The notes under the pieces are model-generated. The model saw nothing but the letters and a program-made list of their open reading frames with translations, was not told the DNA's origin and did not search any database. Of a stretch of 64,000 bases of DNA, positions 11,865 through 64,000 are shown one piece after another (within the stretch, counting starts at the first letter, position 1; the number at the start of each line of letters is the position of its first letter). The translations under genes were made by a program, and so were the position numbers. The stretch is taken from contig DASXHZ010000058.1 in NCBI GenBank assembly GCA_036488085.1, positions 69,468 to 133,467 of the forward strand, in the 5' to 3' direction. The DNA comes from Thermoanaerobaculia bacterium. GTDB lineage: Bacteria > Acidobacteriota > Thermoanaerobaculia > Gp7-AA8.

Positions 11865-12449
11865 CTACTTGAACGACGCCAGCCTCGTCCCGATGTAGAT
11901 CGAGTTCACATTCAGGCCGGGGTTCCGCTCCGCGATCACGCCGTTCGAGATGTGGAAGAAGCGCCAGCCGATGTGCAGCGGCGTCCTCGACTGCGGGAAG
12001 AAGACGGCGCCGATGGCGAGCTGCGACTGGAAGTTGACGTGTGACGTCGTCGCCGGAACCTCGCGCATCGACCACATCGGGCCGGAGCCGATCTCGAGGA
12101 ACGGTTGCGCGCGATTCGATCCGGTGCGCCAGAGGTGCCGCGCGTAGAGGCCGAGACCGAACGCCTTCACCTGGTTCGTCGCTGCGCCGAGGTGGTACGG
12201 GTCCCACTCGCGCGGCTGATCGACGTCGCTGAAGATGAACGTCGTGCCGATCTCGGTGTGCGAGATCCAGCGCTGCACCCGTTTCGAATCCCACACGAGC
12301 TCGAGCTGCGCCGACCCGATGCGGGCTTGGCCGTGCCAGTTCTGCATGCTCACCCCGCCGGAGAAATAGCCGTTGAGATCGCGTGGTCCGGCGAGAGAGG
12401 GAAGGGACAAAGCTGCCGCCAGCAGAAAGCTCGCGATCGATGTGCGCAT
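11865..12449 (-). CDS. Outer-membrane lipid A deacylase (PagL)-like acyloxyacyl hydrolase
   Basis: Signal peptide, beta-barrel-like composition, C-terminal HISNG...F (His/Ser dyad of the PagL family). Confidence 0.5.
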   Translation of the reverse strand: MRTSIASFLLAAALSLPSLAGPRDLNGYFSGGVSMQNWHGQARIGSAQLELVWDSKRVQRWISHTEIGTTFIFSDVDQPREWDPYHLGAATNQVKAFGLGLYARHLWRTGSNRAQPFLEIGSGPMWSMREVPATTSHVNFQSQLAIGAVFFPQSRTPLHIGWRFFHISNGVIAERNPGLNVNSIYIGTRLASFK

Positions 12450-14921: not shown

Positions 14922-14925
14922 GACA

Positions 14926-18740: not shown

Positions 18741-19874
18741 ATGTCCGAGTCCCCCATTCTTCAGGGTGATTTGTCCCGCGTCCACCTCCCGGACGTCCTC
18801 AGCTTCGTCTCGATGATCCGCAGGAGCGGGAAGCTCGTACTGCGGAGCAGCGCGATGGAGCGCACCCTGGTTTGGAAGGACGGCGACATCGTCTTCGCTA
18901 CCTCGAACTCGCCCGAGGACTCGCTCGGGTTGTTCCTCCTCAGAAACGGCAAGATCAGTCAGCAGCAGTACGACGAGTCGAAGCGCCGCGTAACGGCGCA
19001 GGTCCGCCACGGAAAGCTGCTCGTCCAGATGGGCGCCATCTCACCGAAGGATCTCTGGTGGGGCGTCAAGAATCAGGCGCTCGACATCATCTACCAGCTC
19101 TTCCACTGGCAGTCGGGGACGTTCGAGTTCGTGGAGACCATGGAGGAGATCTCGAGCGAGAAGATCGTCCTGTCGCTCCACACTTCGAGCGTGATCATGG
19201 AGGGCATCCGCCGGCTCGACGAGTCGGCGCGCATCCGCGAGAAGGTCCCGAACCTCGATGTCGTCTTCATGAAGATCCCGGGAGTGACGCCAGACTTCGA
19301 CGCGCTCGAGATGAGCGATTCCGAGGTCGCGGTGTACAACGACATCGACGGCATGAGGAGCGTGCGCCACCTCATTGCACAGGCGAACGACCTGACGGAG
19401 TTCGACGTCACTCGCATCCTCTTCCAACTCGTATCCGCGCGGCTCATCGAGCCGGCGCCGGAGGAGAAGTCGTTCCGGCCGGTCTTCCTGGACGTCGAGG
19501 ACTCGCCGGAGCTGCTGAAGGTGATCTCCACCTACAACGACATGTTCGGCCGGCTCTATGACGCGCTCCAGCGCGCGGTCGGCGAGGATCAGGCGCGGGA
19601 CATCTTCATGACGGCGTTGCAGCAGGCGGAGGGCGACGACCTCTGGAGCGGCGTCTTCTTCGATCAGTACGGCCGCTTCGACGAGAATATGCTCATCGCG
19701 AACATCTCCGAGCTCCCGTTCGAGCGCCGGAAAGCCGCGCTCGACGAGGGGTTGAACACGCTCCTCTCGGTGGAGCTGTTCGAGGTCTCGCAGCACCTCG
19801 ACGCCGCCGGGAAGGTCGATGTCTTCCGCTTCATCAGCGATCAGAAGGCGAGCCTGGAACGCGTCGGAGCGTAG
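18741..19874 (+). CDS. DUF4388 domain-containing protein
   Basis: N-terminal GDLSRVHLPDVLSFVSMIRRSGKLVL...DGDIVFA pattern typical of DUF4388. Confidence 0.5.
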   Translation: MSESPILQGDLSRVHLPDVLSFVSMIRRSGKLVLRSSAMERTLVWKDGDIVFATSNSPEDSLGLFLLRNGKISQQQYDESKRRVTAQVRHGKLLVQMGAISPKDLWWGVKNQALDIIYQLFHWQSGTFEFVETMEEISSEKIVLSLHTSSVIMEGIRRLDESARIREKVPNLDVVFMKIPGVTPDFDALEMSDSEVAVYNDIDGMRSVRHLIAQANDLTEFDVTRILFQLVSARLIEPAPEEKSFRPVFLDVEDSPELLKVISTYNDMFGRLYDALQRAVGEDQARDIFMTALQQAEGDDLWSGVFFDQYGRFDENMLIANISELPFERRKAALDEGLNTLLSVELFEVSQHLDAAGKVDVFRFISDQKASLERVGA

Positions 19875-35933: not shown

Positions 35934-36543
35934 GAGGTTCCTCCCGCGACACCTCTTCCAGCGTCCTCTGTTTTTCCGAGTACATGGCGAGGAGCTGTTT
36001 GCGGAGGTGTGCGTTATTTCGGTTTTGTTGGATGACGGTCTCGCATTCGGCGATGGCGTCGTCGAGGAGCAGTATTTTTTCTTTGTAACTGACCAGAAGC
36101 GGCGACCGCGGGTCTTCGAGCTTCGGCGACGTGACCTTCTCGAGCTCGTTGATCGCCGCGATGTGCGCCCGTTCCGCGTCTTCGACTTTTTGCAGCGCCT
36201 GATCGCGGAGGATGACGCGGTCGAACGCTTGCTGTTCGGAGCGTTCATGAACAGCGAACCATGCGCCGCCGCCGATGCCGGCGGTGAGTAAGACCGCCGC
36301 GGCGATTTGCCAGAAGCGCGCTTGCGCCGGACGGCTTTCGGTTCGCAGTGCGCGGTCGATCCGCGGCCACAGCATGTCGTTGCGCCACGTCGCATGCAGC
36401 GTCTTCGCGGTGGCCGAGATGTCGAGCCAGTCGTCGAGGCGCTCGCGGCAGGCGGCGCAGTCTTGCGCGTGGCGCGTGGCCGCGGCCATCGACGCCTCAT
36501 CGCCCTCGAGCAGCAGTCCGTCGAGCTCTTCGCAGGTGTTCAT
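35917..36543 (-). CDS. Anti-sigma factor (zf-HC2 zinc finger + single TM)
   Basis: MNTCEEL...H..C..C motif and TM helix IAAAVLLTAGIGGGAWF. Start overlaps the sigma factor stop (ATGA). Confidence 0.7.
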   Translation of the reverse strand: MNTCEELDGLLLEGDEASMAAATRHAQDCAACRERLDDWLDISATAKTLHATWRNDMLWPRIDRALRTESRPAQARFWQIAAAVLLTAGIGGGAWFAVHERSEQQAFDRVILRDQALQKVEDAERAHIAAINELEKVTSPKLEDPRSPLLVSYKEKILLLDDAIAECETVIQQNRNNAHLRKQLLAMYSEKQRTLEEVSREEPHGTNQ

Positions 36544-37139
36544 CGTGATTTCCACATTTCCTGGAGCTGTTTCTTGGTCGAAAAGAGAATCCACTTGGAG
36601 TTCCCTTCGGTGATGCCGAGGATCGAGGCGATCTCCGCATGCGAGAGCCCCTCGATCTCGAAGAGGGTGAAGACGGAGCGGCGTTGCTCGGTGAGCTTGC
36701 CGAGGAGCTTCCGGAGGGTGATGCGTTTCGCGTCGTCGATGCCCGGGGTGCTCCGCTCCAGCGGCATCTCGTCCATCGCCGTCTCTTCCGGCCGCCGCTT
36801 GCGGCGGCGCAGGGCGTCGTAGCAGGTGTTGATGAGGATGCGGTACATCCACGTGCTGAATGACGCTTCGCCCGAGAAGCTCGTAGCGGCGCGGTGGACC
36901 TTCAGCAGCGTCTCCTGGATCGCGTCTTCCGCGTCGCTGACGTTGCCGAGGTGGTTGAAAGCGATCGATTTCATCCGTTCACCGTGAGTCCGATAGATCC
37001 GCTCGAACGCCGCCGAGTCACCCATGGCGCACGCGGCAGCGAGACGACGATCCTCATCCGGCGATGCCGTTTGCGGCGGCGGACCATGGAGGATCTGTGC
37101 TGCGGCGGCCGTGGCGCTGAGCATGTCGTCTGTTGGCAT
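36540..37139 (-). CDS. ECF-family RNA polymerase sigma-70 factor
   Basis: Sigma region 2 (FERIYRTHGERMKSIAFNHL...AEDAIQETLLKV) and region 4 HTH (LSHAEIASILGITEGNSK). Confidence 0.85.
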   Translation of the reverse strand: MPTDDMLSATAAAAQILHGPPPQTASPDEDRRLAAACAMGDSAAFERIYRTHGERMKSIAFNHLGNVSDAEDAIQETLLKVHRAATSFSGEASFSTWMYRILINTCYDALRRRKRRPEETAMDEMPLERSTPGIDDAKRITLRKLLGKLTEQRRSVFTLFEIEGLSHAEIASILGITEGNSKWILFSTKKQLQEMWKSR

Positions 37140-37161: not shown

Positions 37162-39570
37162 TTAGAAGGCCTGAGGTTTCAATCCGTGCTCCCGCCGCAC
37201 GAAGTCGTGAATGAACTTCAGGTGTTGCAACGTGATCGCGTCGCGCTTCCGTTGCGCCGCATCGAGCGTCGCCGGATCGGCGCCGCTGAAAGCAGTGCGG
37301 AGCGGCGTCATCGAGTGGGCGAGCAGGTTGAAGGTCTGATACCACGGGAGGTCGCGGTCAATGAGCCGTCCGCTCTCGTATTCGACCGACGGCAGATCGT
37401 CGACATGGGGCGGTACGTTGCGCGTGATCTTCTCGACCTCGTCGGGCCCGAGCAACAACGCCGTCAGCAGATCCCCCGGTTCGTACATCCCGATCCCCGC
37501 GAGATCCGCGGCAACGGAAGGCGTCCAGTTCGCGGCGACGCGATCGAACGGCAGCGGCCCCTCCTCCATTCGCCCGATGACGATCGTGAATGAGTTCGGC
37601 GTGTTTGGGACCGACCAGATGGTAGTGTTCGGAAAGACGTCGCGAAACGCGCGGACGATCTGCAGGTAGTTGCGCGGCGTGAGCGAATACATCGGCAGCC
37701 ACATCGACATCACGCCCGCCCCGGTGAGGTGGCGCCTGCAGATCTCGAAGTAGTCCTTCGTGTACAGCGACCCGTTCCCCGCATACCTCGGGTGGATTGA
37801 ATCGGAGAGGATGACGTCGAACGTCTCGCGCGACCCGAGGATGAAGTTCCGGCCGTCGTTGATCTCGACGTGAACACGCGGATCGTGCAGGACGCCGTGA
37901 TTCACCGCCGTCAAACGCGTTCCCGACACCTGTAGGACCTCGGGGGAGATCTCCGCGATGGTGATGTTCGAGACGGGATGCCGCGATACGGCCCATGCCG
38001 TACCGCCGCTTCCGAATCCGATATGGAGCACGCGCTGCGCATGCGGGTGAAGGAGCAGTGGGATGTGTCCCTGCAGCTTCTGCGTCCCCATCAGCTCCCC
38101 CGAAGTGCCGGCGACGTTGACGCCGTTCAGCTCGAGCGAGAGATAGTCGGGGCCGAGTTTCCGGAGCGTCACGGTGGCCGTGACGTCTTCGCGGAAGAGC
38201 AGGATCGGCGCGCGTTGGTCGGTGAACAGGCCGGCGGATAGGATGACCTGATCCGGTTTCGCGAAGATGAACGCGCCGGCGACAACCAGCAAAGCAACGA
38301 TGGCTGGTTTTCGCAGGAAGTAAACGCCGATCGCGAGGTTTATGCACGCCATGAGGAATAGCCCGTTCTGCGAGCCGAACAGGCGGATGAGAACGAATCC
38401 AGCGAGGAGCGAGCCGGTGATGCTGCCGATCGTGTTGGCGAGATAGACGTTCCCGACCGATCGCGTCTCGCTCTGTGTCGCGCTGATCTCGTAGAGCCGC
38501 ACGGTGAGCGGGAACGCCGCTCCCATGAGCGCGGTCGGGATGAGCAATGCCACGAGCGTCGCGGAGAGAAGGGCAGGGAACGGAGACGCCACGTGAATCG
38601 CGATCCAGGGCCGGACCGCGGCTTCGAGGAGGTCAGCGAAGTGCGCGAAGAGGTGCACCTGCAGCGCGAGTACCGCGGCGAGCGTGAGCTCGATGGCGCC
38701 GAGCACTCTTGCGATGTCGATGTGCGCGACGTAGCGCTCGATGACCGCGCTCCCGATGCCGATGCCGATGAGAAACGAGAAGAGCATCAAGGAGTAGGCG
38801 TAGACACTGCTGCCGAGGTGCAGGACGAGGATGCGCGACCAGAAGACTTCGTCGGCGATCGCGGCTAGGCCCATCAGCGCCGAGGCGATCAAGATGAGTG
38901 TTGGATTGACCGCGCCCGGTGATATCGCGCTTGTCGGTTGGGAGGTTACGAAGTCGCCGGGTCGGCGGGTGAGCAGCACCGCAATGATCGCCAGCGTGAA
39001 GTTGAGGATGACAGCGGCGAAGATTGTTGAAAGCAAGCCGACCCGCGGAATCAGGACGAAGCCGGCGAGCGCGACGCCGGCCGTTGCGCCGAGGGTGTTG
39101 ACCGCGTACAGCGCCGAGATGGCGGTACCCGTTCCTTCGAGCTCGCCGGTGAACCAGCGGACGAGGAGCGGCAGCGTGCCGCCCATCAGGATCGTCGGCG
39201 GGAGGAGGAACGCCGCTGCGAGAATTCCGCGGACCAGCGTCATCGCTAGCGCGCTCTGATGCACCGCGGGAAACGCAGCGACGTATGCGCGGTTCAGCAG
39301 CTCGAATCCGTTCGGCGAGAAGGCCCCGATCAATCCGATCAGCGCCTCGGTCCCCGCATAGACGAGCAGAGCAGGCTTTGCGCGAAACGCCCGGCTGAAG
39401 AGGAACGCGCCGACCCCGAGACCGCCGAGGAAGACGGCGATGAGGGTGGCGGCGGCGTAAACCGTGTTGCCGAAGATCAGGCCGAGGTACTTCAGCCAAA
39501 CGATCTGATAGAGCAACGCGCTGATGCCGGACGCGAAGAAGACCGCGAGGAGGACGCGACGACCCTTCAC
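37162..39570 (-). CDS. Fused polytopic membrane domain / spermidine synthase-like aminopropyltransferase
   Basis: ~480-aa N-terminal multi-TM region plus C-terminal spermidine synthase fold (VLHIGFGSGGTAW...ISPEV...DGRNF). Confidence 0.75.
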   Translation of the reverse strand: MKGRRVLLAVFFASGISALLYQIVWLKYLGLIFGNTVYAAATLIAVFLGGLGVGAFLFSRAFRAKPALLVYAGTEALIGLIGAFSPNGFELLNRAYVAAFPAVHQSALAMTLVRGILAAAFLLPPTILMGGTLPLLVRWFTGELEGTGTAISALYAVNTLGATAGVALAGFVLIPRVGLLSTIFAAVILNFTLAIIAVLLTRRPGDFVTSQPTSAISPGAVNPTLILIASALMGLAAIADEVFWSRILVLHLGSSVYAYSLMLFSFLIGIGIGSAVIERYVAHIDIARVLGAIELTLAAVLALQVHLFAHFADLLEAAVRPWIAIHVASPFPALLSATLVALLIPTALMGAAFPLTVRLYEISATQSETRSVGNVYLANTIGSITGSLLAGFVLIRLFGSQNGLFLMACINLAIGVYFLRKPAIVALLVVAGAFIFAKPDQVILSAGLFTDQRAPILLFREDVTATVTLRKLGPDYLSLELNGVNVAGTSGELMGTQKLQGHIPLLLHPHAQRVLHIGFGSGGTAWAVSRHPVSNITIAEISPEVLQVSGTRLTAVNHGVLHDPRVHVEINDGRNFILGSRETFDVILSDSIHPRYAGNGSLYTKDYFEICRRHLTGAGVMSMWLPMYSLTPRNYLQIVRAFRDVFPNTTIWSVPNTPNSFTIVIGRMEEGPLPFDRVAANWTPSVAADLAGIGMYEPGDLLTALLLGPDEVEKITRNVPPHVDDLPSVEYESGRLIDRDLPWYQTFNLLAHSMTPLRTAFSGADPATLDAAQRKRDAITLQHLKFIHDFVRREHGLKPQAF

Positions 39571-52764: not shown

Positions 52765-53493
52765 ATGCAGAAGTGGGCTGTTCTCGCGGGACTCGTGTTT
52801 CTCGCGACAGTTGCATTCGGCGAAGAGGCGAAACCGCCGGAGAAAGTATGGGCGAGCAGCATCGGGGCGGGGCTCGCGATCACGAGCGGAAACACGGATA
52901 CGAAGAACTACAACCTCTCGTTCACGACGAAGTACGACCCGAAGGCCAAGGTCGTGTTCAAGGCCGACGCGCTCTTCTTGCGCGGAGAGTCGGACGGGCT
53001 GGTGAACGTCGACAAGGCGACGGCGGACGCGCGGTACGAGTACAACGTCTCCGATCGGACTTTCGCGTTCGCGGAGGTGAACTACCTGCGCGACCCGTTC
53101 AAGGACATCGACTACTTCGTGGCGCCGCTGGCGGGCGGTGGTTACCGGGTCATCAAGAGCGACACGAAGAACCTGACGGTCGACGGCGCGGCGGGCGCCG
53201 AGGTCGAGAGGGGAGTTCTGGGGCGATCGTCGGGCGGTGCTCTCAAGGCCGGCGAAAACTTCGACTGGGCACTCTCGCCGACGAGCAAGTTCACGCAGAA
53301 GCTCACCGGGATCTGGAAGACGAAGGACTTCGGCGACGCGCTCTACCACTTCGACGCGGGGCTGACGATGGCCGTCGCCGGCCGGCTCGAGCTGAAGCTG
53401 GCGTATGCATACGACTACAAGTCGCGGCCCGAGCTGATCACAGTCAAGAAGGGGGACAGCGCCCTCTTTGCAGCGCTGCTGTACAAGTTCTGA
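52765..53493 (+). CDS. DUF481 outer-membrane beta-barrel protein (YdiY-like)
   Basis: Signal peptide, alternating beta-strand pattern and C-terminal ...LLYKF. Confidence 0.55.
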   Translation: MQKWAVLAGLVFLATVAFGEEAKPPEKVWASSIGAGLAITSGNTDTKNYNLSFTTKYDPKAKVVFKADALFLRGESDGLVNVDKATADARYEYNVSDRTFAFAEVNYLRDPFKDIDYFVAPLAGGGYRVIKSDTKNLTVDGAAGAEVERGVLGRSSGGALKAGENFDWALSPTSKFTQKLTGIWKTKDFGDALYHFDAGLTMAVAGRLELKLAYAYDYKSRPELITVKKGDSALFAALLYKF

Positions 53494-53508
53494 ACTGTTA
53501 CGCGGGGC

Positions 53509-54111
53509 GTGCGACAGATCGTCGCTCCACTCGCCGTCTTGGCGCTCCTGATCGCGCCGACCATCGGGGATCTCCTCGCGAGACGCGGAGACCCCTGTCT
53601 CGTCTCGCCGTGCTGCATCGGAAAGATGATCAAGTCGTGCGATGCATCCGCACGGATCGCAGAGTGGGGAAGGCATCCGTTCGACTTTGGCGACGCGTCG
53701 CTCCAGGCACGCTGGCGTGCATGGCGCGGCGATTCTCCCGTAGGTTCCTCGTTCTGGCTCTGCGGCGGCGTGAAGGTTCCGACCGGCAATGCGCATGAAT
53801 TGAGCCGCGGTCCCGATCCGGAGGAAGGCGAAGTCCCCATCCAGCCGGGCAGCGGCTCGACCGATGTCCTCCTCGGCGCGACCTGGCAGAGTGGGATTCT
53901 TCGCGAGACCTCGTTGCAGGGGATGATGGGTAAGACGACCCTCATTCCGTTCTTGACCTCGGTGTCGTACCGCTTCAACGGACGCGGCACGCACGACTAT
54001 CGGCTCGGCAACGAGCTTCAGCTCAACGCCGGGTCCGAGTACCCGATTTCGGAAGGGCTCCACCTTCTCGGACAGGTGAATCTCCGCCATCGCGAGAAGG
54101 ACTCGGTCTGA
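53509..54111 (+). CDS. Hypothetical secreted protein, possibly a truncated outer-membrane barrel
   Basis: Signal-peptide-like N-terminus and beta-rich C-terminal half, but it ends ...HREKDSV without a terminal aromatic residue. Confidence 0.3.
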   Translation: MRQIVAPLAVLALLIAPTIGDLLARRGDPCLVSPCCIGKMIKSCDASARIAEWGRHPFDFGDASLQARWRAWRGDSPVGSSFWLCGGVKVPTGNAHELSRGPDPEEGEVPIQPGSGSTDVLLGATWQSGILRETSLQGMMGKTTLIPFLTSVSYRFNGRGTHDYRLGNELQLNAGSEYPISEGLHLLGQVNLRHREKDSV

Positions 54112-54191
54112 CGAAAAGTCCGATGCGCCATCGGGATCGCCCGATAGGCCATCGGACAAACCTGATCCATGGATTTGATCAGGAGGCTCGC

Positions 54192-55268
54192 CTACTCGCG
54201 AATGCCTTCCGCTTGCAGGACGTCCTTGAACTGCTCCTTGTCGATCGCTTTGTCGTACGCGGAGCGGGCGGAGATCTTCTTGTCTTCGTAGAGCCGCTTG
54301 ATCGAGGTGTCCATGTCGATCATCCCTTCCTTGACGCCCGTCTGGATGGCTGACGTGATCTGCGGCGTTTTTCCCTCGCGGATCATGTTGCCGATGGCGG
54401 GGGAGGCGAAGAGGATCTCGATGGCGGCGACGCGGCCGCCGCCGAGCTTCGGCATGAGTTGCTGCGCGACGACGGCGCGGATCGTCTCGCCCAGGACGCC
54501 GCGGATACCGTCCTGCTCGGGGGCGGGGAAGACGCTGATAATGCGGTCCATCGTCTTGGCCGCATTGTTCGTGTGCAGCGTTCCGAAGACGAGGGTGCCG
54601 CGCTCGGCGGCGTTGAGCGCCATTTGGATGGTCTCGAGGTCGCGCATCTCGCCGACGAGGACGATGTCGGGGTCTTCGCGACCGGCGGCTTTCAGCGCCT
54701 CGGCGAACGATTTCGCGTGCGTCCCGATCTCGCGCTGGTGGATGAGACACTTCTTGTTCGGATGGACGAACTCGATCGGGTCTTCGATCGTGATGATGTG
54801 CTGTGAGCGCGTATCGTTGATTAGATCGATGATCGCGGCGAGCGTGGTCGACTTGCCGGAGCCGGTCGGTCCCGTGACGAGAACGAGTCCGCTGCGGAGC
54901 GCCGCGATCCGCCGGAGCTGATCGGGGAGGCCGAGCTGCTCGAGCGTCATGATCTTCGACGGGATGATGCGGAAGACCGCGCCGGCGCCGCGCTGCTGCC
55001 GGAAGAGGTTGACGCGGTAGCGCGCCACGTTCGGAATCTCGTAGGCCCAGTCGGTGTCGCCGCCCTCGAGGAACTCCTCCCAGTTGCGCCTCGGCGTCAC
55101 CGCCGAGAGCATCTCGTTGAAGTCGCCCTCGGTGACGATGCGATAGCGGATCGGCTCCATCGCGCCGGAGGCGCGGAGCATCGGCGGGCGGCCGACGGTC
55201 AGATGAAAGTCCGACGCCCCGCGGTCGTTCATCAGTCGGAGGAAGCGGTCGATCTTGTTGGAGGGCAT
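54192..55268 (-). CDS. pilT: Type IV pilus retraction ATPase PilT
   Basis: 358-aa protein with Walker A GPTGSGKST, Asp box, Walker B DIVLVGEMRD and His box GTLVFGTLHT. The upstream ~300 aa of the track ORF were rejected. Confidence 0.88.
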   Translation of the reverse strand: MPSNKIDRFLRLMNDRGASDFHLTVGRPPMLRASGAMEPIRYRIVTEGDFNEMLSAVTPRRNWEEFLEGGDTDWAYEIPNVARYRVNLFRQQRGAGAVFRIIPSKIMTLEQLGLPDQLRRIAALRSGLVLVTGPTGSGKSTTLAAIIDLINDTRSQHIITIEDPIEFVHPNKKCLIHQREIGTHAKSFAEALKAAGREDPDIVLVGEMRDLETIQMALNAAERGTLVFGTLHTNNAAKTMDRIISVFPAPEQDGIRGVLGETIRAVVAQQLMPKLGGGRVAAIEILFASPAIGNMIREGKTPQITSAIQTGVKEGMIDMDTSIKRLYEDKKISARSAYDKAIDKEQFKDVLQAEGIRE

Positions 55269-55273
55269 GGCTG

Positions 55274-57781
55274 TCAGACCGTCTTGGTGCCGGCGATGAA
55301 CGCGGGCGTGACCATCGGCTCGAATTCTTCTTTCTTCTGGGCGGCGAGATACGCGGTTTCGGCGGTGATCTGGTCGCGCTTGACGAGGTCCTTCAACGCG
55401 TCGTCGAACGTCTGCATGCCGAAGCTGCGGCCGATTTGCATGGCGGAGTAGATCTGGTACGTCTTCTCGTCGCGGATCATGTTCGCGATGTTGCTCGTTC
55501 CCTTGAGGACCTCGAAGGCGGCGACCTGCTTGCGGGCTTCCTTCGCTGGCAGAAGGCGCTGCGCGATGCAGTACTTCATCGACTCGGAAAGCGAGGCGCG
55601 GATCTGCGGCTGCTCGTCGGCGGGAAAGCTCGAGAGGATGCGGTCGATCGCCTTCGGCGCGCTTGTCGAATTGAGAGTGCCGAGGACGATGTGGCCGGTC
55701 TCGGCCGCGGTGAGCGCCAGCGTGATTGACTCGTTGTCGCGCAGCTCGCCGATCACGATGACGTCGGGATCTTCGCGGAGGGCGGCGCGGAGCGCGCGGG
55801 CGAACGACTGCGTGTGCGATCCGACCTCGCGCTGGTTGACGAGGCAGCTCTTGAACGGATGGACGAACTCGACCGGGTCCTCCATCGTGAGGACGTGATC
55901 GGAACGCGTCTCGTTGAAGAGATTCACGAGCGCCGCGAGGGTCGTCGACTTCCCGGAGCCCGACGGGCCGCAGACGAGGACGAGTCCCTGGTGGTAGTCG
56001 GAGATCTCGGCGAGCTGCGCCGGAAGGCCGAGATCGAGGATCGTCGGCGGCTTCTCCGGGATGACGCGGAAGACGGCGTTGTAGCCGCTCTGGTCGTAGA
56101 AGACGTTCCCGCGATAGCGGCCCGCCTGCGGGATGTAGTAGCAGAAGTCGAGCTGGTGCTCTTTCTGGATCGTCTCCCACTGCGCCGGCGTCAGGATCTC
56201 GCGCAGCATCTCTTCCGTCTGTTCCGGTGTGAAGGGATCCGCCTGCGCGCGGAGCAGGTCGGCCGAGATCCGGAGGATGGGCGGCTGTCCGACGGAGAGA
56301 TGGAAATCCGATGCGCCCTGATTGCGCGTGGCGATCAGGAGGGTGTTCAGCTTCGCGTCGCCCGACTTGCCGGTGACGGTTAGCGCCTGCTTCCGTACGG
56401 CGTCGATCTGCGACTGTGTTTTTTGCTCCGTGATCGCGATCTCGTCGAGGATGTCGATGGCGCGCGCGCGGACGTTGCGCTCCGGATCGTTCGCCGCCAT
56501 CTGCAGCAACGCGTTTTGTACCTGCGGGTGTTTGAAGTGCCGCAGCGCCTGCATCACCTCGATGCGGATGTCGGGCGATGGATCGGCGAGCATCTTGCCG
56601 AGGGCGGGGAGGGAGCGCGGGTCGCCGATGCGGCCGAGCGACTCGACCGCGGCCCAGCGGACGTCGGCATCGGCGAGCGCCGCCATGAGCGGCTCGACGG
56701 CACGGGAGTCCTTCAGGCGGCCGAGCGTGTCAGCGGCGGCGATGCGGATCCACCAGTCGGGATCCTTCAGCAGCGCGATGGTCGACGGGACGATGCGCGG
56801 ATCGTCGAAGGCGCTCGCGACGGCGATGGCCGCCGCGCGCACGTCGTCGTCGGGATCGCGCAGCAGCTCGATGGCCGGCTCGATGAGCTGGTCGCCGAAG
56901 GCGCGGAGGGAGTCGAGCGCGCGGTCGCGTACGAATCCGGCGAGCGATTTCGAGAAGAGGATGAAGCGTTTGACGATCTCGTGCGGATCGCCGACGCCGA
57001 CCAGGATCTTCAGCACGGCGCTGCGCGTGGCCGCGTCGCCCGAGGCGACCAGCGGCAGGAGCTTCTCGGCAAACTCGACGCCCCGGCCGGCCGCGACGCG
57101 CGTGAGCGCCTCGACGATCGCCTGCTGTGTCGCGTAGCCGACACGCGGCAGCTCTTTCACGAGGATGTCGACTGCGGGCGCAGGCGCGCGTTCCGCGAGG
57201 ACGTGTACCGCCTTTTCGCGGATCGACCGGTCCTCGTCCCCGGCGATCTGGCGCCAGCGCGCAACGACGCGGTCGTCCATCTCGCTCGAGGCGAGCTTGT
57301 TGAGGTACGGCAGCCGCTCCTCGGGCCATCCCTGCATCGCCAGTTGCCAGATCAGCGGGGCGATCGCGCCGTTCAGCGGCGCTTCGAGAAGAACGCGCTT
57401 CGCCGACTCCTGCATCTCGCGCGTCTCTTTCGTTTCCTTCGCCGGGACGGCGAGGATCTGCGCCGCGCGTTGGTCGATGCCGGGAAGGTTGAGCGCGAAG
57501 AAGGTGCTGACCGCGGCGCGGATCGCCGCTTCCGGCTTTCCCTTCGCCTCGACTAGGAAGACGTCGAACGACTCCGGATCGCGTGTCCGCAGAAGCACCT
57601 TCCCCGCCGTGTCGCGGAAGGTCCGGTCAGGTCGGAAAAACATCCATGTAATGTCGCGCGCGCGGATGTTCTCCGCGGTCGCGATGCGCACGAGCAGTTC
57701 GTCGCGCTCCTCGTTCGTCTGGAACTCTTTGTTCGACAGACGACGGACGGTGTCCTTGAGGTCGGATTGGAAGAGGGCCAT
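55274..57781 (-). CDS. HEAT-repeat N-terminal domain fused to a PilT/PilU-family ATPase
   Basis: N-terminal ~480 aa of HEAT/PBS-lyase-like repeats (DPDWWIRIAAADTLGRLKD, ADVRWAAVESLGRIGD, PDIRIEVMQAL). C-terminal PilT domain with GPSGSGKST, DVIVIGELRD and GHIVLGTLNS. Confidence 0.8.
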   Translation of the reverse strand: MALFQSDLKDTVRRLSNKEFQTNEERDELLVRIATAENIRARDITWMFFRPDRTFRDTAGKVLLRTRDPESFDVFLVEAKGKPEAAIRAAVSTFFALNLPGIDQRAAQILAVPAKETKETREMQESAKRVLLEAPLNGAIAPLIWQLAMQGWPEERLPYLNKLASSEMDDRVVARWRQIAGDEDRSIREKAVHVLAERAPAPAVDILVKELPRVGYATQQAIVEALTRVAAGRGVEFAEKLLPLVASGDAATRSAVLKILVGVGDPHEIVKRFILFSKSLAGFVRDRALDSLRAFGDQLIEPAIELLRDPDDDVRAAAIAVASAFDDPRIVPSTIALLKDPDWWIRIAAADTLGRLKDSRAVEPLMAALADADVRWAAVESLGRIGDPRSLPALGKMLADPSPDIRIEVMQALRHFKHPQVQNALLQMAANDPERNVRARAIDILDEIAITEQKTQSQIDAVRKQALTVTGKSGDAKLNTLLIATRNQGASDFHLSVGQPPILRISADLLRAQADPFTPEQTEEMLREILTPAQWETIQKEHQLDFCYYIPQAGRYRGNVFYDQSGYNAVFRVIPEKPPTILDLGLPAQLAEISDYHQGLVLVCGPSGSGKSTTLAALVNLFNETRSDHVLTMEDPVEFVHPFKSCLVNQREVGSHTQSFARALRAALREDPDVIVIGELRDNESITLALTAAETGHIVLGTLNSTSAPKAIDRILSSFPADEQPQIRASLSESMKYCIAQRLLPAKEARKQVAAFEVLKGTSNIANMIRDEKTYQIYSAMQIGRSFGMQTFDDALKDLVKRDQITAETAYLAAQKKEEFEPMVTPAFIAGTKTV

Positions 57782-57867
57782 TCTGTGGCCCGAATTGTAG
57801 GTGGTCAGGTTGCCCGGTTGCCAGGTTGCCGACTCGGCCACCCGGCAACCTGGCTACCCTTGTCTCA

Positions 57868-58236
57868 CTAATCTCTGTTCAAAGTGCTGATCAGCAGCCC
57901 CGCTCCCAGCGCCAGCGCGGCCACTCCTGCCGCCACCTTCCCTGGGTTCTCCTTGGCGTACTCCGTTGCCTTCGTCGTCCCCTGGTTCAGGTAGTCGCGC
58001 GCGGTGTTGAGGTACTGCTCCATATCGACGCTTTGCATCTGCGTCTTGAGGTTGTCGATCATCTCCTCGGAGACGCCGAGGCGCCCGAGGAACTGCTCCA
58101 GTCCGCGGTTCTGAGCGCGCGACTGCCCACAGGTCGGACAGAGGTCGGTGCCGGTCGTCGTGCCTGCGCCGAAACGCGACGTATCGCTCGCGCTCGTCGT
58201 TCCGATTCCGCTGGTGAGTGGTGTGTCTTGGGCCAT
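57868..58236 (-). CDS. Small protein with CPTCGQ zinc-ribbon-like motif and C-terminal TM helix
   Basis: 122-aa ORF co-directional with the PilT genes. TM segment VAAGVAALALGAGLLISTL. Confidence 0.4.
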   Translation of the reverse strand: MAQDTPLTSGIGTTSASDTSRFGAGTTTGTDLCPTCGQSRAQNRGLEQFLGRLGVSEEMIDNLKTQMQSVDMEQYLNTARDYLNQGTTKATEYAKENPGKVAAGVAALALGAGLLISTLNRD

Positions 58237-58244
58237 GCTCCCTC

Positions 58245-58679
58245 CTATTTCTTGCCGGCGCGCGTGTCGCGCTCGCCCGGCTCGTAACTGCGGCGGTGTG
58301 TTCCGATACGAGGATCTCCCGACTTGTTCGTGTAGTGGTCCTCGTCGTTCCAGCGATCAGCGCCGGCGCCTGTCGCGAACTCCTGATCGCGTTGCTGGTC
58401 CGCTCCGCTGGCGCGGAAGGGGCCTTTCAGGCTTGTCTGGGTCGGCGAATACGACTGGTTGAGCTCCTCGAGCGAAATGTCGGGCTCTCGTCGGACTGGG
58501 CGGGCGGTGTGCGGTTGCTCGCGCTCGGTACGAATGGGCGTCGCGACGTCGTCGCGCCCGCTTTGCGCCGTGCGCGGTTCACTGTTCTGGTTGCGGGAAA
58601 AGAGGCGTTTCACGCTGCCGGTCATACTCTCCGTCAGGCGCGCGATACGGCCTCGTCGGTTGGTTTTTTCTTCTGCCAT
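58245..58679 (-). CDS. Hydrophilic, highly charged hypothetical protein
   Basis: ~145 aa, rich in R/E/D/T with no hydrophobic segment. Start taken at MAEEKT. Confidence 0.3.
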   Translation of the reverse strand: MAEEKTNRRGRIARLTESMTGSVKRLFSRNQNSEPRTAQSGRDDVATPIRTEREQPHTARPVRREPDISLEELNQSYSPTQTSLKGPFRASGADQQRDQEFATGAGADRWNDEDHYTNKSGDPRIGTHRRSYEPGERDTRAGKK

Positions 58680-58721
58680 TTGGTTTCCCCCGGGATACAG
58701 AGAGTGCAAACGGCAAACCCA

Positions 58722-61121
58722 TTATTTGGAGTACGTAACGCGCCAGATGACATTCGCTCCGTCATCCGAGACGAGGAGTGAACCGTCGCCGAGGACGAGC
58801 AGCCCGACGGGGCGCCCCCAGACGCTGTTCGAGGCAGGATCGGGCATCCATCCGATGACGAAATCGTCGTAGCCGCCGGCCGGCTTGCCGTCGCGGAACG
58901 GGACGGAAATGACGCTGTAGCCGGTGCGCCGCGATCGGTTCCAGGAGCCGTGCAACGCGACGAACGCGCGGCCGCGGTATTCGGGCGGGAACATCGTGCC
59001 GTTGTAGAAGACGAGACCGAGAGGCGCGGAGTGCGCCTGAATGAGAAGCGCCGGAACGACCGCTTTCGAGACGAGGTCGGGACGTTCGCCGCGGCGCCGC
59101 GGATCTTCGTGCGCACCGAGGTACGCGTACGGCCAGCCGTAGAACGCGTTGGCGCGGACGCCGGTAATGTAGTCGGGGACGAGATCGTCGCCGAGGCCAT
59201 CGCGCTCGTTCACCGACGTCCAGAGCTCGTGGGTCGTCGGGTTCCACGCGAGGCCGACTGGATTACGGAGGCCGAACGCGAAGACACGGGCGTTCTTGCC
59301 GTTCGCGTCATACGCCATGATCGCCGCGCGCGGCGGATCCTCGCGCGAGATGTTCGACGCCGAGCCGATGGCGACGAAGAGCTGCGTGCCGTCGGCGCTG
59401 AAGACGATGTTGCGGGTCGAGTGGCCGCCGCCCGGCAGCGGCGCGAGCTTCTGCACGCCGCCGCGCGACGCCGTCTCGCCGGCGCGGTACGGCATCCGGT
59501 AGATTCCGTCCTCGGCGCCGACGTAGAGCCACTCGTCATGGATCGCGAGGCCGAACGGATCGGCGATCTGGGTGGTGAAGGTGTAGCGTTTGCTGTTCCG
59601 CAGAATGCTGATCTGGCTGGCGCCGCTCTGCGCCACGATGATGTCGCCATTCGGCGCGAGGATCATGTTGCGCGGATCGTCGATGCCGGTGGCATAGGCC
59701 GCGATGTGAAAGCCGGGCGGAAGGTGGAGTTGTGCATTCGCCGGACGCTTCCGCGTCCACGGCGCGTTCGCGGCACTCGGGGTCGCGTACGGCGCCGGAA
59801 GCTGGTCGAGCCGGATCTCGTGGTGTCCGAGGCCGGTGCTCGTCGTGGTGACCGGCTGGGCGTCGCCGCCGCACGCGGCCAGCGACAGGAGAAGAGTCGC
59901 GAATGCAATCCGGCGCACGACGTAAAGCCTATGCAACGTCGTCGCCGCGGCGATCGCCATGATCGGAACGACCGGAACGCGAAACCGCGCCTCTGCTTCG
60001 CTGCCGGCGGAGATCAGGACGAAGTACGCGATGGTCAGTGCGACTAGGAGCGACAGGGTGCGATCGCGTTGCCACAGGAGGTAGGTGCCGAAAAGGGCGA
60101 GCAGCGTGATGGCGTGCGTCCAGACATCGAGGACAATGGCGAGGAGCGTCGGTGGGACGCTGCTGACCATCTCCATCGCCTCGGAATCGCTATCGAAGAG
60201 GTTCACGCAGACACCGCGAACGAGGACGGTCGTGAGGCCGAGCGGGTGCTGCAACGCGATCCGGCGTCCGATCTTGCCGAACCACATCGCATGTTGCGCC
60301 GGATTGAGATCGCCGGCGCTCGCGGTGTGGAGCGTCCGCTCGATCTCGGTGTCCGCGTCGGACGCGAGCTCCTCCTGTCGGTCTCTCAACGCCTCGTAGA
60401 AGTCGTAGTCGTCGAAGATCGCGAGCGAAGGTGCGGCACGGTGGTCGAGCATGTTGATCCCCGCGACGTCCGCGATCGCGAAGACGCCCGTCCGCGCCTT
60501 GTTCCGCGCCATCCACGCGATCGGCAGAATCAGCGACGCGATCACGAAGACGATGACGTGCTTGCGGCGAATCATCACGATCGCGAGCACCGCGAAGTAG
60601 AGAATTGATGCGGGCCGGATCAGCACAAGCGCGCCGGTTAGAAGCCCCATCACGATCATGTTCGCGGCCCTCCCGCGCAACACGAGCCAGATGAGCGCGA
60701 AGAGTCCGACGGTGAAAAGCGTCTCGGTGAGCACCTTGTTCGCGTAGTGGATCGACGGCGTGTCGAGCGCGAAGATCAGTCCCGCGATGAAAGCGATTCC
60801 GCGCGAGAGGCGCTGCCGCGCAAAGAGGTAGATCGCCATCGCGAGGGCTACGTTCATCAGGTGCTGGACGAGGACGACGGCGGTGAAGGTGCGGAACGCC
60901 ATCAGGAACAGCGGATAGCCCGGCGTGCGAAACGTCTCGATGACTCCGTTCGCGCGGAGGAAACCGTGCCCGGCGAGCATCGACCGCGCCGGCTCGATGT
61001 AGGTCCTCGAGTCAGGGAAGAAGAAGTCTCCGTTGCTTGCGGCGAAGTAGAGGAGATTGGTGAGCAGCGTCAACGCGGCGAGGATCGCCAGATCGATCGG
61101 TGCGCGCCGCATCGAGCGCAT
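58722..61121 (-). CDS. Fusion protein: GT-C-fold membrane glycosyltransferase (ArnT/PMT-like) + periplasmic PQQ-type sugar dehydrogenase (SGDH) beta-propeller
   Basis: N-terminal ~400 aa with many TM helices and FFPDSRTYIEPARSMLAGHGF. A TM/lipobox-like segment RRIAFATLLLSLAACGG, then GLAWNP...ELWTSVNERDGLGDDLVPDYI...FYGWPY. One continuous 799-codon ORF. Confidence 0.6.
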   Translation of the reverse strand: MRSMRRAPIDLAILAALTLLTNLLYFAASNGDFFFPDSRTYIEPARSMLAGHGFLRANGVIETFRTPGYPLFLMAFRTFTAVVLVQHLMNVALAMAIYLFARQRLSRGIAFIAGLIFALDTPSIHYANKVLTETLFTVGLFALIWLVLRGRAANMIVMGLLTGALVLIRPASILYFAVLAIVMIRRKHVIVFVIASLILPIAWMARNKARTGVFAIADVAGINMLDHRAAPSLAIFDDYDFYEALRDRQEELASDADTEIERTLHTASAGDLNPAQHAMWFGKIGRRIALQHPLGLTTVLVRGVCVNLFDSDSEAMEMVSSVPPTLLAIVLDVWTHAITLLALFGTYLLWQRDRTLSLLVALTIAYFVLISAGSEAEARFRVPVVPIMAIAAATTLHRLYVVRRIAFATLLLSLAACGGDAQPVTTTSTGLGHHEIRLDQLPAPYATPSAANAPWTRKRPANAQLHLPPGFHIAAYATGIDDPRNMILAPNGDIIVAQSGASQISILRNSKRYTFTTQIADPFGLAIHDEWLYVGAEDGIYRMPYRAGETASRGGVQKLAPLPGGGHSTRNIVFSADGTQLFVAIGSASNISREDPPRAAIMAYDANGKNARVFAFGLRNPVGLAWNPTTHELWTSVNERDGLGDDLVPDYITGVRANAFYGWPYAYLGAHEDPRRRGERPDLVSKAVVPALLIQAHSAPLGLVFYNGTMFPPEYRGRAFVALHGSWNRSRRTGYSVISVPFRDGKPAGGYDDFVIGWMPDPASNSVWGRPVGLLVLGDGSLLVSDDGANVIWRVTYSK

Positions 61122-61122
61122 T

Positions 61123-62286
61123 TTATGCGCGAAGCAGGCTCTCCAATTCGTCCAGCCGCGAGGCGCGATTGCGCGCGTCGTCGAGCGTGATCAGCCCCTG
61201 CCGCAGCAGCGCTACGAGCGAGTCTTCGAAGGAGATCATCCCCTGTCGTTTCCCCATCGTGATCTCCGTCGCGAACTGCTGCAGCTTGTTGCCCCGAATG
61301 TGGTTTCGCACCGGCTGATTGGCGAGTACGACCTCCACCGCCACGGCCCGCCCCGCGTTGTCGGCGCGCGGGATCAACTGTTGGATGACGATGGCATTCA
61401 ACGACAACGCGAGTTGCTGGCGGATCTGGTTCTGCTGCTGCGGCGGAAAGACGTCGATGATGCGGTGGATTGCCTGCGCCGCGTCGCTGGTGTGGAGCGT
61501 CGAGAGGATCAAGTGCCCCGTCTCCGCCGCCGTCAGCGCGATCGACACCGTCTCCAGATCGCGCATCTCGCCGACCAGGATGACGTCGGGGTCCTGCCGC
61601 AGCGCCGCGCGGAGCGCCGCCGCGAAAGACGGTGCGTCGCGCCCGATCTCGATCTGTTCGATGACCGACTTTGCGTTCCGGTGCTCGTACTCCACCGGGT
61701 CCTCGATGCTGACGATGTGGCGCTGCTCGCTGTGATTGATGATCTCGACGAGCGACGCGAGAGTCGTTGTTTTTCCCGACCCGGTCGGCCCGCAGACCAG
61801 GACCAGGCCGCGTGTCGGCTTCACGAGGTCGGCGAGCGACGGCGGGAGATGGAGCTGCGAGAGCGTCGGCACATCGGTCGGCAAGGCACGGATGGCCGCG
61901 GCGAGTGTCCCGCGCTGCCGGTGTACGTTGACCCTGAACCGGTACCGGTTCAGGTACACGGAGAAGTCGGCCGCGCCGTTCTCGCGGAGCTGCTCCTGTA
62001 GCCGCGGGGTGAGGAAGCCGGCGAAGTAGGTCGTCACGTCGTCGCCGTCGAGGAGCTGCTCGTCGATCCGGATCAGCCGTCCGCCGAGGCGTGCGATCGG
62101 CGGGTTGCCGGCGATGAGGAGGAGATCGCTGGCACCCCGCTGGGTCATCTCGCTCAGCAGCCGCTCCAGCGGGTTCCCCTCCGGTACCGCCTGCGGCGCA
62201 GCCTGCAGCGCCTGCCGCCGCTCGCCCCCCTCATTCAGCTCGCGAACGAGCTGCTCTAGTTCTTCGTCACGTGTCAGTCTGCCCAT
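61123..62286 (-). CDS. PilT/PilU-family ATPase (third paralog)
   Basis: GPTGSGKTT, DVILVGEMRD and GHLILSTLHT. Its stop lies 1 nt from the downstream gene's start. Confidence 0.85.
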   Translation of the reverse strand: MGRLTRDEELEQLVRELNEGGERRQALQAAPQAVPEGNPLERLLSEMTQRGASDLLLIAGNPPIARLGGRLIRIDEQLLDGDDVTTYFAGFLTPRLQEQLRENGAADFSVYLNRYRFRVNVHRQRGTLAAAIRALPTDVPTLSQLHLPPSLADLVKPTRGLVLVCGPTGSGKTTTLASLVEIINHSEQRHIVSIEDPVEYEHRNAKSVIEQIEIGRDAPSFAAALRAALRQDPDVILVGEMRDLETVSIALTAAETGHLILSTLHTSDAAQAIHRIIDVFPPQQQNQIRQQLALSLNAIVIQQLIPRADNAGRAVAVEVVLANQPVRNHIRGNKLQQFATEITMGKRQGMISFEDSLVALLRQGLITLDDARNRASRLDELESLLRA

Positions 62287-62345
62287 CGGTGAATATTGAC
62301 GAACGAAGCGTGCCAGGAGTTACGAACCGCTAATATCGCGCCTGC

Positions 62346-63881
62346 ATGCGGCTCTCGCTGCGCATCCTCCAGGCCGGCGCGATCGCCGTGGTCGTCGCCG
62401 TCTCGACGTTCCACGCCTTCGAGCTCGATCGCTTCTTCGTCGCGAAGGAGCTGGTGCTGCACGTCGTGGCGGTCCTGGCGGCGCTCTTCGCGTGGCGAGG
62501 GCTCCGTAACCTAGAGACCACGCGGCTCGACTGGCTGCTCACCGCCTTCCTTGGCCTCAGCGCGCTCTCGGCACTCTTCGCCACGAATCGCTGGCTCGGC
62601 CTCCGAGGTCTGGCGGTCAGCGTTTCGAGCGTGCTGATTTTCTGGGCGGCGCGGACGCACGGCCGCGCCCTCGCCGGTGCGCTCGCATTCGCGGTCATCG
62701 TGGCCGCGGTGACGTCGCTGCTGCAGACCTACGGCCTCGACATGGAGCTCTTTTCCGAGAACCGCGCTCCCGGTGGGACCCTGGGCAACCGCAACTTCAT
62801 CGCACACGTCGCCGCGTTCGGGATGCCGCTGCTGCTCTTCATGACGATCACCGCGCAGCGCTACCGCACGTTTCTCTGGAATGCGATCGGGACCGCGCTC
62901 GTGACGGCGTCGCTGGTGATCACGCGCTCGCGCGCGGCGTGGCTGGCGTTCGCCGCGATGCTGGTGGTGCTGCTCTTCGCGCTCCTTGCCGCGCGATCTC
63001 TGCGCCGCGATGGCCGTACTTGGCGGCGCCTCGGGTTCACGATCGTGGTTGCGGTGATTGCGACCGGCGCTGTGCTCGTTCTTCCGAACGCGCTCCACTG
63101 GCGCAGCAAGAACCCGTACCTGGAGTCGATCCACAAGGTCGCCGACTATCAGGGGGGGAGCGGGCGGGGACGCCTCATCCAATATGAGCGCACCCTCGGG
63201 CTGGCTCTGCGGCATCCAGTGTTCGGCGTCGGCCCCGGCAACTGGGCGGTCGAGTATCCAACGCGCGCACCCGGAAGCGATCCCTCGATGAACGAGTCGG
63301 AGCCGGGGATGACGATGAATCCGTGGCCGAGTAGCGACTGGGTGGCCTTCGTCGCCGAGCGAGGACCCATCGCCGCGGTGCTTCTCGGACTCTTCTTCCT
63401 CGGCGTCATCCGTCTCGGATTCCGGCAGCTGTTCTCCGCGTCCGACGCCGACTCTGCACTCGCCGCGGTTGCGCTCCTCGGCGTGGTCGCGGGCGCACTC
63501 GTCTCCGGCCTCTTCGACGCCGTACTCCTCACCGCCGTCCCCGCCTACATCGTCTTCGCATCCATCGGCGCGCTTCTAAGTGTGGCGCCGGCAGTCCTGC
63601 CGGCGACTCCGTCATCTAAATCCAGCGTCTTCATCTTCCTCATCGTGATCTCCGCCGTGGGTGCCTGGCGCAGCGGATCGCAGCTCGTCGCGATGGACAT
63701 CTACACGACCGCCGGCACGCGCGCTCAACTCGAGCGGGCGTCGCAGATCGATCCCGGCAACTTCCGTCTCCACCTCCGACTCGCACGCGGCGGAAAGCAG
63801 CGGTGCGCTCACGCGCGGGCCGCCCACGCGCTCTACCCGTCGGCGCAGGTCGCGAAGCAGTTGGCGCGCGGCTGCGGCTAA
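62346..63881 (+). CDS. O-antigen ligase family (Wzy_C) membrane protein
   Basis: About 10 TM helices. ITRSRAAWLAF and GVGPGNW motifs of Wzy_C. Short TPR-like C-terminal tail. Confidence 0.6.
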   Translation: MRLSLRILQAGAIAVVVAVSTFHAFELDRFFVAKELVLHVVAVLAALFAWRGLRNLETTRLDWLLTAFLGLSALSALFATNRWLGLRGLAVSVSSVLIFWAARTHGRALAGALAFAVIVAAVTSLLQTYGLDMELFSENRAPGGTLGNRNFIAHVAAFGMPLLLFMTITAQRYRTFLWNAIGTALVTASLVITRSRAAWLAFAAMLVVLLFALLAARSLRRDGRTWRRLGFTIVVAVIATGAVLVLPNALHWRSKNPYLESIHKVADYQGGSGRGRLIQYERTLGLALRHPVFGVGPGNWAVEYPTRAPGSDPSMNESEPGMTMNPWPSSDWVAFVAERGPIAAVLLGLFFLGVIRLGFRQLFSASDADSALAAVALLGVVAGALVSGLFDAVLLTAVPAYIVFASIGALLSVAPAVLPATPSSKSSVFIFLIVISAVGAWRSGSQLVAMDIYTTAGTRAQLERASQIDPGNFRLHLRLARGGKQRCAHARAAHALYPSAQVAKQLARGCG

Positions 63882-64000
63882 CGCACCAGGCGCCGGCGCG
63901 CGAATACGTCGACGCGGAACTGGACGTTCGACGTGGAGCAGGTCGTTGCGGCCTCGGCCCAGACGTAGGTGCTTCCGTAGGCGGTGGCGGCGAACGGAAG

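Follow-up and report, generated by a model that had tools for sequence, protein, structure and literature searches.

The 64,000-nt stretch of Thermoanaerobaculia DNA analysed here (the window; source, the 92-kb JGI soil-metagenome contig Ga0376664_0000053) holds a row of six co-directional minus-strand genes, running from 62286 down to 54192, that encode three PilT-family ATPases, two small proteins and, in one open reading frame (ORF), a candidate membrane glycosyltransferase (GT) and a GSDH-type beta-propeller. This gene content had been proposed in an initial annotation and is confirmed by the ORFs and by Pfam and NCBIfam matches. At 100% identity, the proteins of the window match a metagenome-assembled genome of Thermoanaerobaculia (Acidobacteriota). 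Compared across about 160 related loci, the row is a mosaic of three modules: PilT-C with the GT; GSDH with the small proteins s144 and s122; and HEAT-PilT with PilT-A. What stands out most in it is HEAT-PilT, in which a PilT is joined to a large HEAT-repeat scaffold, a combination not described before. The row, its parts and its nearest features are as follows.

54120-54134, minus strand: terminator-like hairpin from a consensus scan, directly after the last gene of the row
54192-55268, minus strand: PilT-A, 358 aa; TIGR01420 at 439.3 bits
55274-57781, minus strand: HEAT-PilT, 835 aa; HEAT_2, HEAT and HEAT_PBS, and TIGR01420 at 417.9 bits over residues 478-819
55274-56371, minus strand: ATPase domain of HEAT-PilT, residues 471-835, with a degenerate His box
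56372-57781, minus strand: HEAT-repeat solenoid of HEAT-PilT, residues 1-470; Pfam HEAT_2, HEAT and HEAT_PBS
57868-58236, minus strand: s122, 122 aa; weak DUF883_C match only
58245-58679 (alternative start 58709), minus strand: s144, 144-154 aa; no family
58722-61121, minus strand: ORF of GT plus GSDH, 799 aa; GSDH at 54 bits in the C-terminal half
58722-59918, minus strand: GSDH-type beta-propeller part of that ORF; GSDH at 54 bits plus TrAA12; in frame with the GT
59919-61121, minus strand: GT-C part of that ORF, about 400 aa; PMT_2/GT39-83-like, with a GT-C fold model
61123-62286, minus strand: PilT-C, 387 aa; TIGR01420 at 421.1 bits; 1 nt upstream of the GT
62346-63881, plus strand: Wzy_C/O-antigen-ligase family gene, 511 aa; Wzy_C at 55.1 bits; divergent neighbour

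The gaps between the six genes are 1, 42, 8, 86 and 5 nt in gene order, and G+C content is about 65% across the window, with no compositional break at the row. The hairpin (54134-54120) is the sole terminator-like site on the minus strand in 53400-64000, so none lies inside the row, a faint hint of a single transcript. A promoter scan found no sigma-70-like site and the terminator scan gave fewer sites than shuffled sequence does; operon structure is therefore not settled by sequence, and we regard the six genes as probably co-transcribed in this organism. Two plus-strand ORFs (together 52795-54111) converge on the end of the row, one encoding a 232-aa DUF481 protein of outer-membrane type, the other 200 aa long and unannotated; a 98-99%-identical strain (L004) has other genes in place of the 200-aa ORF.

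HEAT-PilT and its partner PilT-A

All three ATPases exceed the curated cut-off (319.1 bits) of TIGR01420, the PilT/PilU family model, and for all three a solved PilT structure outscores PilU. The nearest solved structure to PilT-A is P. aeruginosa PilT (PaPilT, 3jvu; 373 bits, versus 235 bits for PilU, 9n32); the ATPase domain of HEAT-PilT scores 330 and 234 bits against the same two proteins; PilT-C is nearest to Aquifex PilT (2ewv; 312 bits, versus 248 bits for PilU). All four nucleotide motifs are present in PilT-A and PilT-C, namely GPTGSGK[ST]T, the IEDP Asp box, GEMRD and GHL..TLHT with both histidines. PilT-A in particular carries Walker A GPTGSGKST, Walker B GEMRD, the His box TLHT and AIGNMIRE. 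This last is its version of the AIRNLIRE-type C-terminal stretch, which reads IANMIRDE in HEAT-PilT and VRNHIRGN in PilT-C; the three are similar and none is identical to it. PilT-A would be an ordinary, canonical retraction motor of a type IV pilus.

HEAT-PilT keeps Walker A and Walker B, and its His box reads GHIVLGTLNS, with Asn aligned to H229 of PaPilT. A database search returned 614 full-length relatives at an E-value of 1e-20 or lower. Of the best 120 (about 830 aa, 68-92% identity, 99-100% of the query covered), which their sources annotate just as "PilT", none has His at the second His-box position, where Asn, Ser or Thr stands throughout (120/120). The start of the gene at 57781 is backed by a family-wide N-terminus, MALF. 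In P. aeruginosa, the H229A variant of PilT retains only part of its function and by itself does not support twitching (PMC12607626). Because the second His-box histidine is lost though the Walker motifs are kept, HEAT-PilT is likely a weak or altered ATPase. We also considered HEAT-PilT as a PilU orthologue and rejected this on its scores (330 bits to PilT versus 234 bits to PilU).

The AlphaFold model of the HEAT domain (predicted local distance difference test, pLDDT, 87.2) is one continuous solenoid with 28 helices over residues 8-468. Its Foldseek matches were alphaRep, karyopherin-beta2 and the PP2A scaffold (A subunit), that is, generic HEAT/ARM scaffolds only, which give no clue to a specific partner. 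From the model and these fold matches, the 470-residue solenoid most likely acts as a docking scaffold, through which the retraction motor would be bound to regulators or held at a site in the cell.

With the HEAT domain as query and one genome per species, we collected 80 HEAT-PilT loci, mostly from Thermoanaerobaculia, with some from Vicinamibacteria and a few from metagenome-assembled genomes (MAGs) labelled otherwise. Those MAGs carry the labels Chondromyces (L066), Hyphomicrobium (L072) and Proteobacteria (L084); the first two, at 50-52% identity and on short contigs, may be binning errors, and the third, at 31% identity in the HEAT domain and 55% in the ATPase domain, may be a true distant relative. 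Neighbourhood counts here and below were made by tblastn with the window proteins; our own ORF calls on high-GC loci were sometimes antisense and so were not used for these counts. A PilT-A orthologue (about 70-87% identity) lies downstream of HEAT-PilT on the same strand in 60 of the 63 evaluable species-level loci, at a median gap of 0 nt (5 nt in the window); the 60 include L042, where HEAT-PilT and its partner overlap. The flanks of the pair vary, their 967 ORFs falling into 627 clusters. Its commonest non-PilT neighbour is a protein that belongs to no Pfam family, is about 160-260 aa long and has an N-terminus resembling a signal peptide; its gene directly precedes HEAT-PilT in 12 loci (L009-L011, L013, L016, L019, L020, L022, L023, L031, L033, L035; e.g. 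L035:6045-6677).

The pair, conserved as a unit, resembles the pilT-pilU tandem of P. aeruginosa, Vibrio and Neisseria, which likewise places two adjacent PilT genes, one canonical and one diverged, apart from pilus genes; HEAT-PilT shares with PilU its place in tandem with a pilT gene. The pilT/pilU loci of P. aeruginosa and Neisseria normally have no other pilus genes nearby. In contrast to that tandem, the first gene here is that of the diverged partner, which has a HEAT solenoid of 470 residues, no second His-box histidine and a sequence closer to PilT than to PilU. In the pilT-pilU tandem, PilU is an accessory retraction ATPase that depends on PilT (PMC6762196, PMC6821130).

Myxococcus xanthus offers a second parallel. 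MXAN_6705 and MXAN_6706 are adjacent PilT paralogs conserved across an order; MXAN_6705 has a longer N-terminus, reported to be intrinsically disordered, deletion mutants show auxiliary effects on S-motility, and all five Myxococcus PilT paralogs are reported to keep the His box (PMC13584747). Likened by description, these paralogs share adjacency and an extended N-terminus with HEAT-PilT, which however has a folded HEAT solenoid and a degenerate His box. HEAT-PilT, encoded immediately upstream of PilT-A, would by these parallels be an accessory partner that works like PilU or the N-terminally extended Myxococcus paralog and depends on PilT-A.

Two contexts of the pair bear on its function. 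In L036 and L037 it diverges, across a 57-nt gap, from a type IV filament assembly cluster, which in L036 (215-9890) comprises T2SSF, T2SSE with MshEN, four small genes, a TPR-secretin and a prepilin-like gene, and in L037 is alike. In five Vicinamibacteria-type loci (L055, L064, L067, L071, L080) HEAT-PilT is closely preceded by a Roadblock/LC7 MglB-like gene (166 aa) and a gene for a small MglA-like GTPase (195 aa; e.g. L064:8663-9763). By analogy with Myxococcus, the likeness to whose paralogs they fit, these neighbours suggest a link to polarity control of motility. Both contexts fit type IV filament retraction under spatial control. The MshEN domain of PilB/MshE-type ATPases, one of which adjoins HEAT-PilT in L036, is likewise an N-terminal and plausibly regulatory addition to a secretion-type hexameric ATPase. 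It differs in being a binder of a nucleotide, cyclic di-GMP (c-di-GMP), on extension ATPases, whereas HEAT-PilT has a HEAT scaffold, of the protein-binding kind, on a retraction-type ATPase.

A pilus itself is missing from view. Neither the window nor the source contig from 1.9 to 80.6 kb (about 79 kb of one contig in all) contains a pilB/C/M-Q or pilin gene, and none of the frames of the window has a prepilin motif; the initial annotation had pointed to the absence of other pilus genes nearby, and it extends over this longer span. This absence would suit a different reading, in which the PilT paralogs belong to a type IV filament machine other than a pilus (akin to a type II secretion system, T2SS, for secretion or uptake) or have an unrelated role, the row then being an envelope-remodelling operon. 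So would the L036 cluster, where T2SSE, T2SSF and secretin are common to T2SS and type IV pili and the four small genes have no Pfam match, including to PilM/N/O/P. We think this reading very improbable: all three proteins pass the PilT/PilU model, the solved structures closest to them are those of PilT, T2SS machines are not known to use ATPases of the PilT type, and the MglA/MglB-like neighbours point to motility polarity.

Our literature search found no paper on HEAT-PilT, nor any on Thermoanaerobaculia pili or on the surface motility machinery of Acidobacteriota, a phylum abundant in soil and hard to culture. How labour is divided among several PilT paralogs is an open question, and the PilU and Myxococcus work is recent. 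A strictly conserved, degenerate PilT partner that is always paired with a canonical PilT is a natural experiment on the dependence of accessory motors.

PilT-C and the GT-C glycosyltransferase

PilT-C has an N-terminal extension of about 40 aa and a canonical TLHT His box, and many Thermoanaerobaculia have orthologues that are 66-76% identical; its motifs suggest a third, catalytically canonical paralog. The GT half of the adjoining 799-aa ORF has about 45 relatives, nearly all of them stand-alone proteins of about 440 aa, several with a precomputed PF13231 (PMT_2) assignment. The window GT itself reaches Glyco_transf_22 at 22.3 bits against a cut-off of 23.8, a sub-threshold score that leaves it outside the Pfam family. 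Its structure model (pLDDT 86.8) has the polytopic GT-C fold, with PglB, AglB, STT3, ArnT, Emb and AftB as best PDB folds (probability 1.0, query-normalised TM-score about 0.5). No relative turned up when PDB sequences were searched with a profile of the GT alignment, so the classification rests on the predicted fold. D37 and S38, assigned to the first loop, are invariant in 15 sequences. A protein of this fold would be a GT-C enzyme that takes a sugar from a polyprenyl-phosphate donor and passes it to an acceptor in the periplasm.

A scan of metagenomes anchored on the GT gave 80 loci, 57 of them evaluable for an upstream PilT gene. In 44 of these 57 the gene immediately upstream of the GT, and on its strand, is a PilT-C orthologue (63-78% identity), most gaps being -18 to +100 nt; redundant loci were kept in (L092/L093, L123/L165 and L141/L142 look identical), and the fraction counts loci, not species. 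The GT lacks an upstream PilT gene in the other 13, and L002 has GT and GSDH with no PilT gene. Four further loci were looked up by PilT-C: three (L167, L169, L170) have PilT-C orthologues (69-70% identity) without the GT, and in L168 the GT adjoins PilT-C divergently, after an inversion. Unrelated flanking genes keep their order as well, TonB_C and EamA on one side and an abhydrolase, an epimerase and an S1-domain protein on the other, so part of the co-localisation is inherited synteny. The pair also has a second context (L102, L105, L111, L115, L124, L125, L127, L163), with other genes downstream on the opposite strand. Their products, with domains read by eye, are a large protein (about 770-805 aa) without annotation, a receiver-GGDEF-EAL protein, a histidine kinase and, in most cases, a single-domain response regulator.

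Such persistence could mean that a PilT-C hexamer docks on the GT-C enzyme instead of on PilC, powering or gating the transfer or export of a glycan. Two genes that stay together in two unrelated flanking contexts, 1 nt apart in the window, directly adjacent in 44/57 loci and still adjacent after the inversion in L168, are what such a device would predict, and it would be the first ATPase-coupled GT-C enzyme. We consider it improbable, since PilT-C orthologues occur without the GT (L167, L169, L170) and the GT without PilT upstream (13/57 loci and L002), PilT-C has no distinguishing domain beyond the extension of about 40 aa, and much of the adjacency may be inherited synteny. We know of no precedent for an ATPase-driven GT-C enzyme. 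Our literature search found no paper on a PilT/GT-C pair; the pair is an undescribed variant whose functional link is uncertain, and a PilT paralog beside a GT-C enzyme, recurring in many loci, is a lead for testing.

A further reading covers both ATPases. HEAT-PilT would be a regulator of the retraction motor of a new class, a catalytically crippled PilT ring that stacks on or mixes with PilT-A, its six solenoids coupling retraction to polarity or signalling proteins (e.g. the MglA/MglB-like pair); separately, PilT-C would be recruited to the GT-C enzyme instead of PilC. We regard this joint reading as unlikely.

The GSDH module and a young gene fusion

The C-terminal half of the 799-aa ORF matches GSDH (PF07995) at 54 bits against a cut-off of 25 and carries an export signal; it would be a periplasmic protein like the soluble PQQ-dependent glucose/sorbosone dehydrogenases. 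The fusion to the GT is real at the ORF level and young, the product of a recent deletion. It occurs in two separate sample assemblies of this species or of a 98%-identical strain; a 100%-identical fused protein is found in an NCBI MAG, which may go back to the same data. GT and GSDH are separate genes in the next species (L005, 81-87% identity). Relative to L005, a deletion of about 54 nt has removed the GT stop codon and brought the GT in frame with the GSDH leader and its lipoprotein signal peptide. The junction, VRRIAFATLLLSLAAC, corresponds to the signal peptide of the L005 GSDH orthologue, and the lipoprotein-type signal RRIAFATLLLSLAAC lies at the junction of the fused ORF. The ATG start of GSDH in L005 is a GTG in the window, at 59916-59918; with a start codon kept in this form, separate translation of GSDH is still possible. 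Apart from the closest relatives, GSDH stands alone everywhere, as a gene of about 400 aa. Since L005 and every relative beyond it encode GT and GSDH separately, we rejected GT-GSDH as a conserved architecture.

Of the gene identities first proposed, those of the ATPases, GT, GSDH and Wzy_C stood; s122 had been taken for a zinc ribbon with a transmembrane segment, and the zinc ribbon was dropped because a single CxxC motif is conserved. The N-terminus of s122 is G/S/T-rich and its C-terminus is a DUF883/ElaB-like glycine-zipper transmembrane anchor; it also has one CPTCG motif and two helices. An alignment of 17 homologues conserves CPTCG, GLEQFLG and AKENPGKVAAGVAVLAVGAGLLI. The other small protein, s144, is hydrophilic and matches no Pfam or NCBIfam family; its JGI gene call starts MAEEK and gives 144 aa. 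Eleven homologues conserve QTSLK..RDQE..RWNDEDRFTNKSGDPRIGTHGRTYEP, and the conserved motifs end in TNKSGDPRIGTHGRTYEP.

In many loci s122 follows GSDH and s144, with or without PilT genes, and both small proteins accompany GSDH even in the PilT-free loci L002, L003 and L167. GSDH, s144 and s122 look like a separate envelope or stress module; its products would be a GSDH lipoprotein and two small proteins in the periplasm and membrane.

Glycan genes and pilus retraction

The divergent 511-aa gene reaches Wzy_C (PF04932) at 55.1 bits against a cut-off of 31.7, a domain common to O-antigen ligases and polymerases and so not specific. Its place beside the row is shared only by L005 and L086 (85-87% identity), and in L028 and L052 it is found close to HEAT-PilT. 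We rejected it as part of a system on this lack of conservation with the row; it would be a passenger. The initial annotation had raised pilin O-glycosylation through PilO/PglL, members of the Wzy_C family. That argument has little support, because Wzy_C adjoins the row in so few loci, and the window offers no prepilin motif for a pilin O-oligosaccharyltransferase gene to sit beside.

Co-localisation of the row in related genomes was borne out: the whole row is present in L004, L005, L006 and L086. The claim of one operon-like new system holds for the tight spacing and for the recurrence in close relatives; it fails in that the row falls into three modules. Among 51 species-level HEAT-PilT loci searched within a 7-kb radius, only 3-4 have PilT-C, GT, GSDH, s144, s122 or Wzy_C nearby. 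A tidy-looking operon can thus be a mosaic in which only two-gene cores survive comparison across species.

Were the row instead a device to glycosylate pilins or surface proteins, the GT-C and Wzy_C enzymes would decorate a fibre and the three PilT proteins would retract it. The tight spacing and the terminator-like site after the last gene suit this idea, as does recurrence: to the four loci with the whole row can be added L030, L026 and at least 10 metagenome loci with the order PilT-C, GT, (epimerase), GSDH, s144, s122, PilT-A, without HEAT-PilT. The GT-C enzyme TfpW and the Wzy_C enzymes TfpO/PglL are known to glycosylate pilins (bioRxiv 10.1101/2020.04.19.049825). The row thus contains the same two superfamilies as TfpW and TfpO/PilO/PglL, a likeness at superfamily level; unlike those systems it has no pilin nearby in the window, and its Wzy_C gene is not conserved with it. 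Known pilin glycosyltransferase genes (TfpW, TfpO/PglL) adjoin pilA, and none of them is known to be linked to pilT, whereas here no pilin gene is near. Since, in addition, Wzy_C is restricted to two close relatives and two other loci, a glycan gene accompanies HEAT-PilT in just those 3-4 of 51 loci, each module occurs alone, and the row has no genes to make or flip a lipid-linked sugar, we judge pilin glycosylation by the whole row to be improbable.

The reading that we prefer, with somewhat better than even confidence, is that three class-wide PilT paralogs act in type IV pilus retraction, and that the glycan and stress genes are lineage-specific neighbours, probably co-transcribed with them. 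None of the three ATPases would require the glycan genes, and a link between glycans and pili would be lineage-specific at most, for example by modifying pilins or the surface that the pili act on. Several points weigh against it. No pilus assembly gene or pilin was found for this genome, of which 79 kb of one contig was seen. The idea of a weak ATPase rests on one residue and a P. aeruginosa mutant. The adjacency of PilT-C and GT (44/57 loci, often with overlapping stop and start, in at least two flanking contexts) exceeds what drift would easily give, and the row GT-GSDH-s144-s122-PilT recurs at about 50% GT identity.

Four other places on the contig may be recorded. At 18741-19874 (plus strand), 35 kb from the PilT genes, the window encodes a 377-aa protein with PATAN/DUF4388 (PatA_N), a family tied to motility regulation in cyanobacteria and myxobacteria. 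Tandem VWA-domain proteins of 821 and 884 aa are encoded at 12456-17580 (minus strand), followed by a PagL-like lipid A deacylase gene (11865-12449). An 802-aa membrane protein (37162-39570, minus strand), in which the spermidine-synthase domain covers only residues 499-659, adjoins a gene for an extracytoplasmic function (ECF) sigma factor (36540-37139, minus strand); the source collection has no exactly matching gene call. Outside the window, the source contig encodes a response-regulator/PilZ fusion (L166:17692-18393) beside a TPR protein and a GT2 gene, which could reflect c-di-GMP-linked regulation elsewhere on the same contig.

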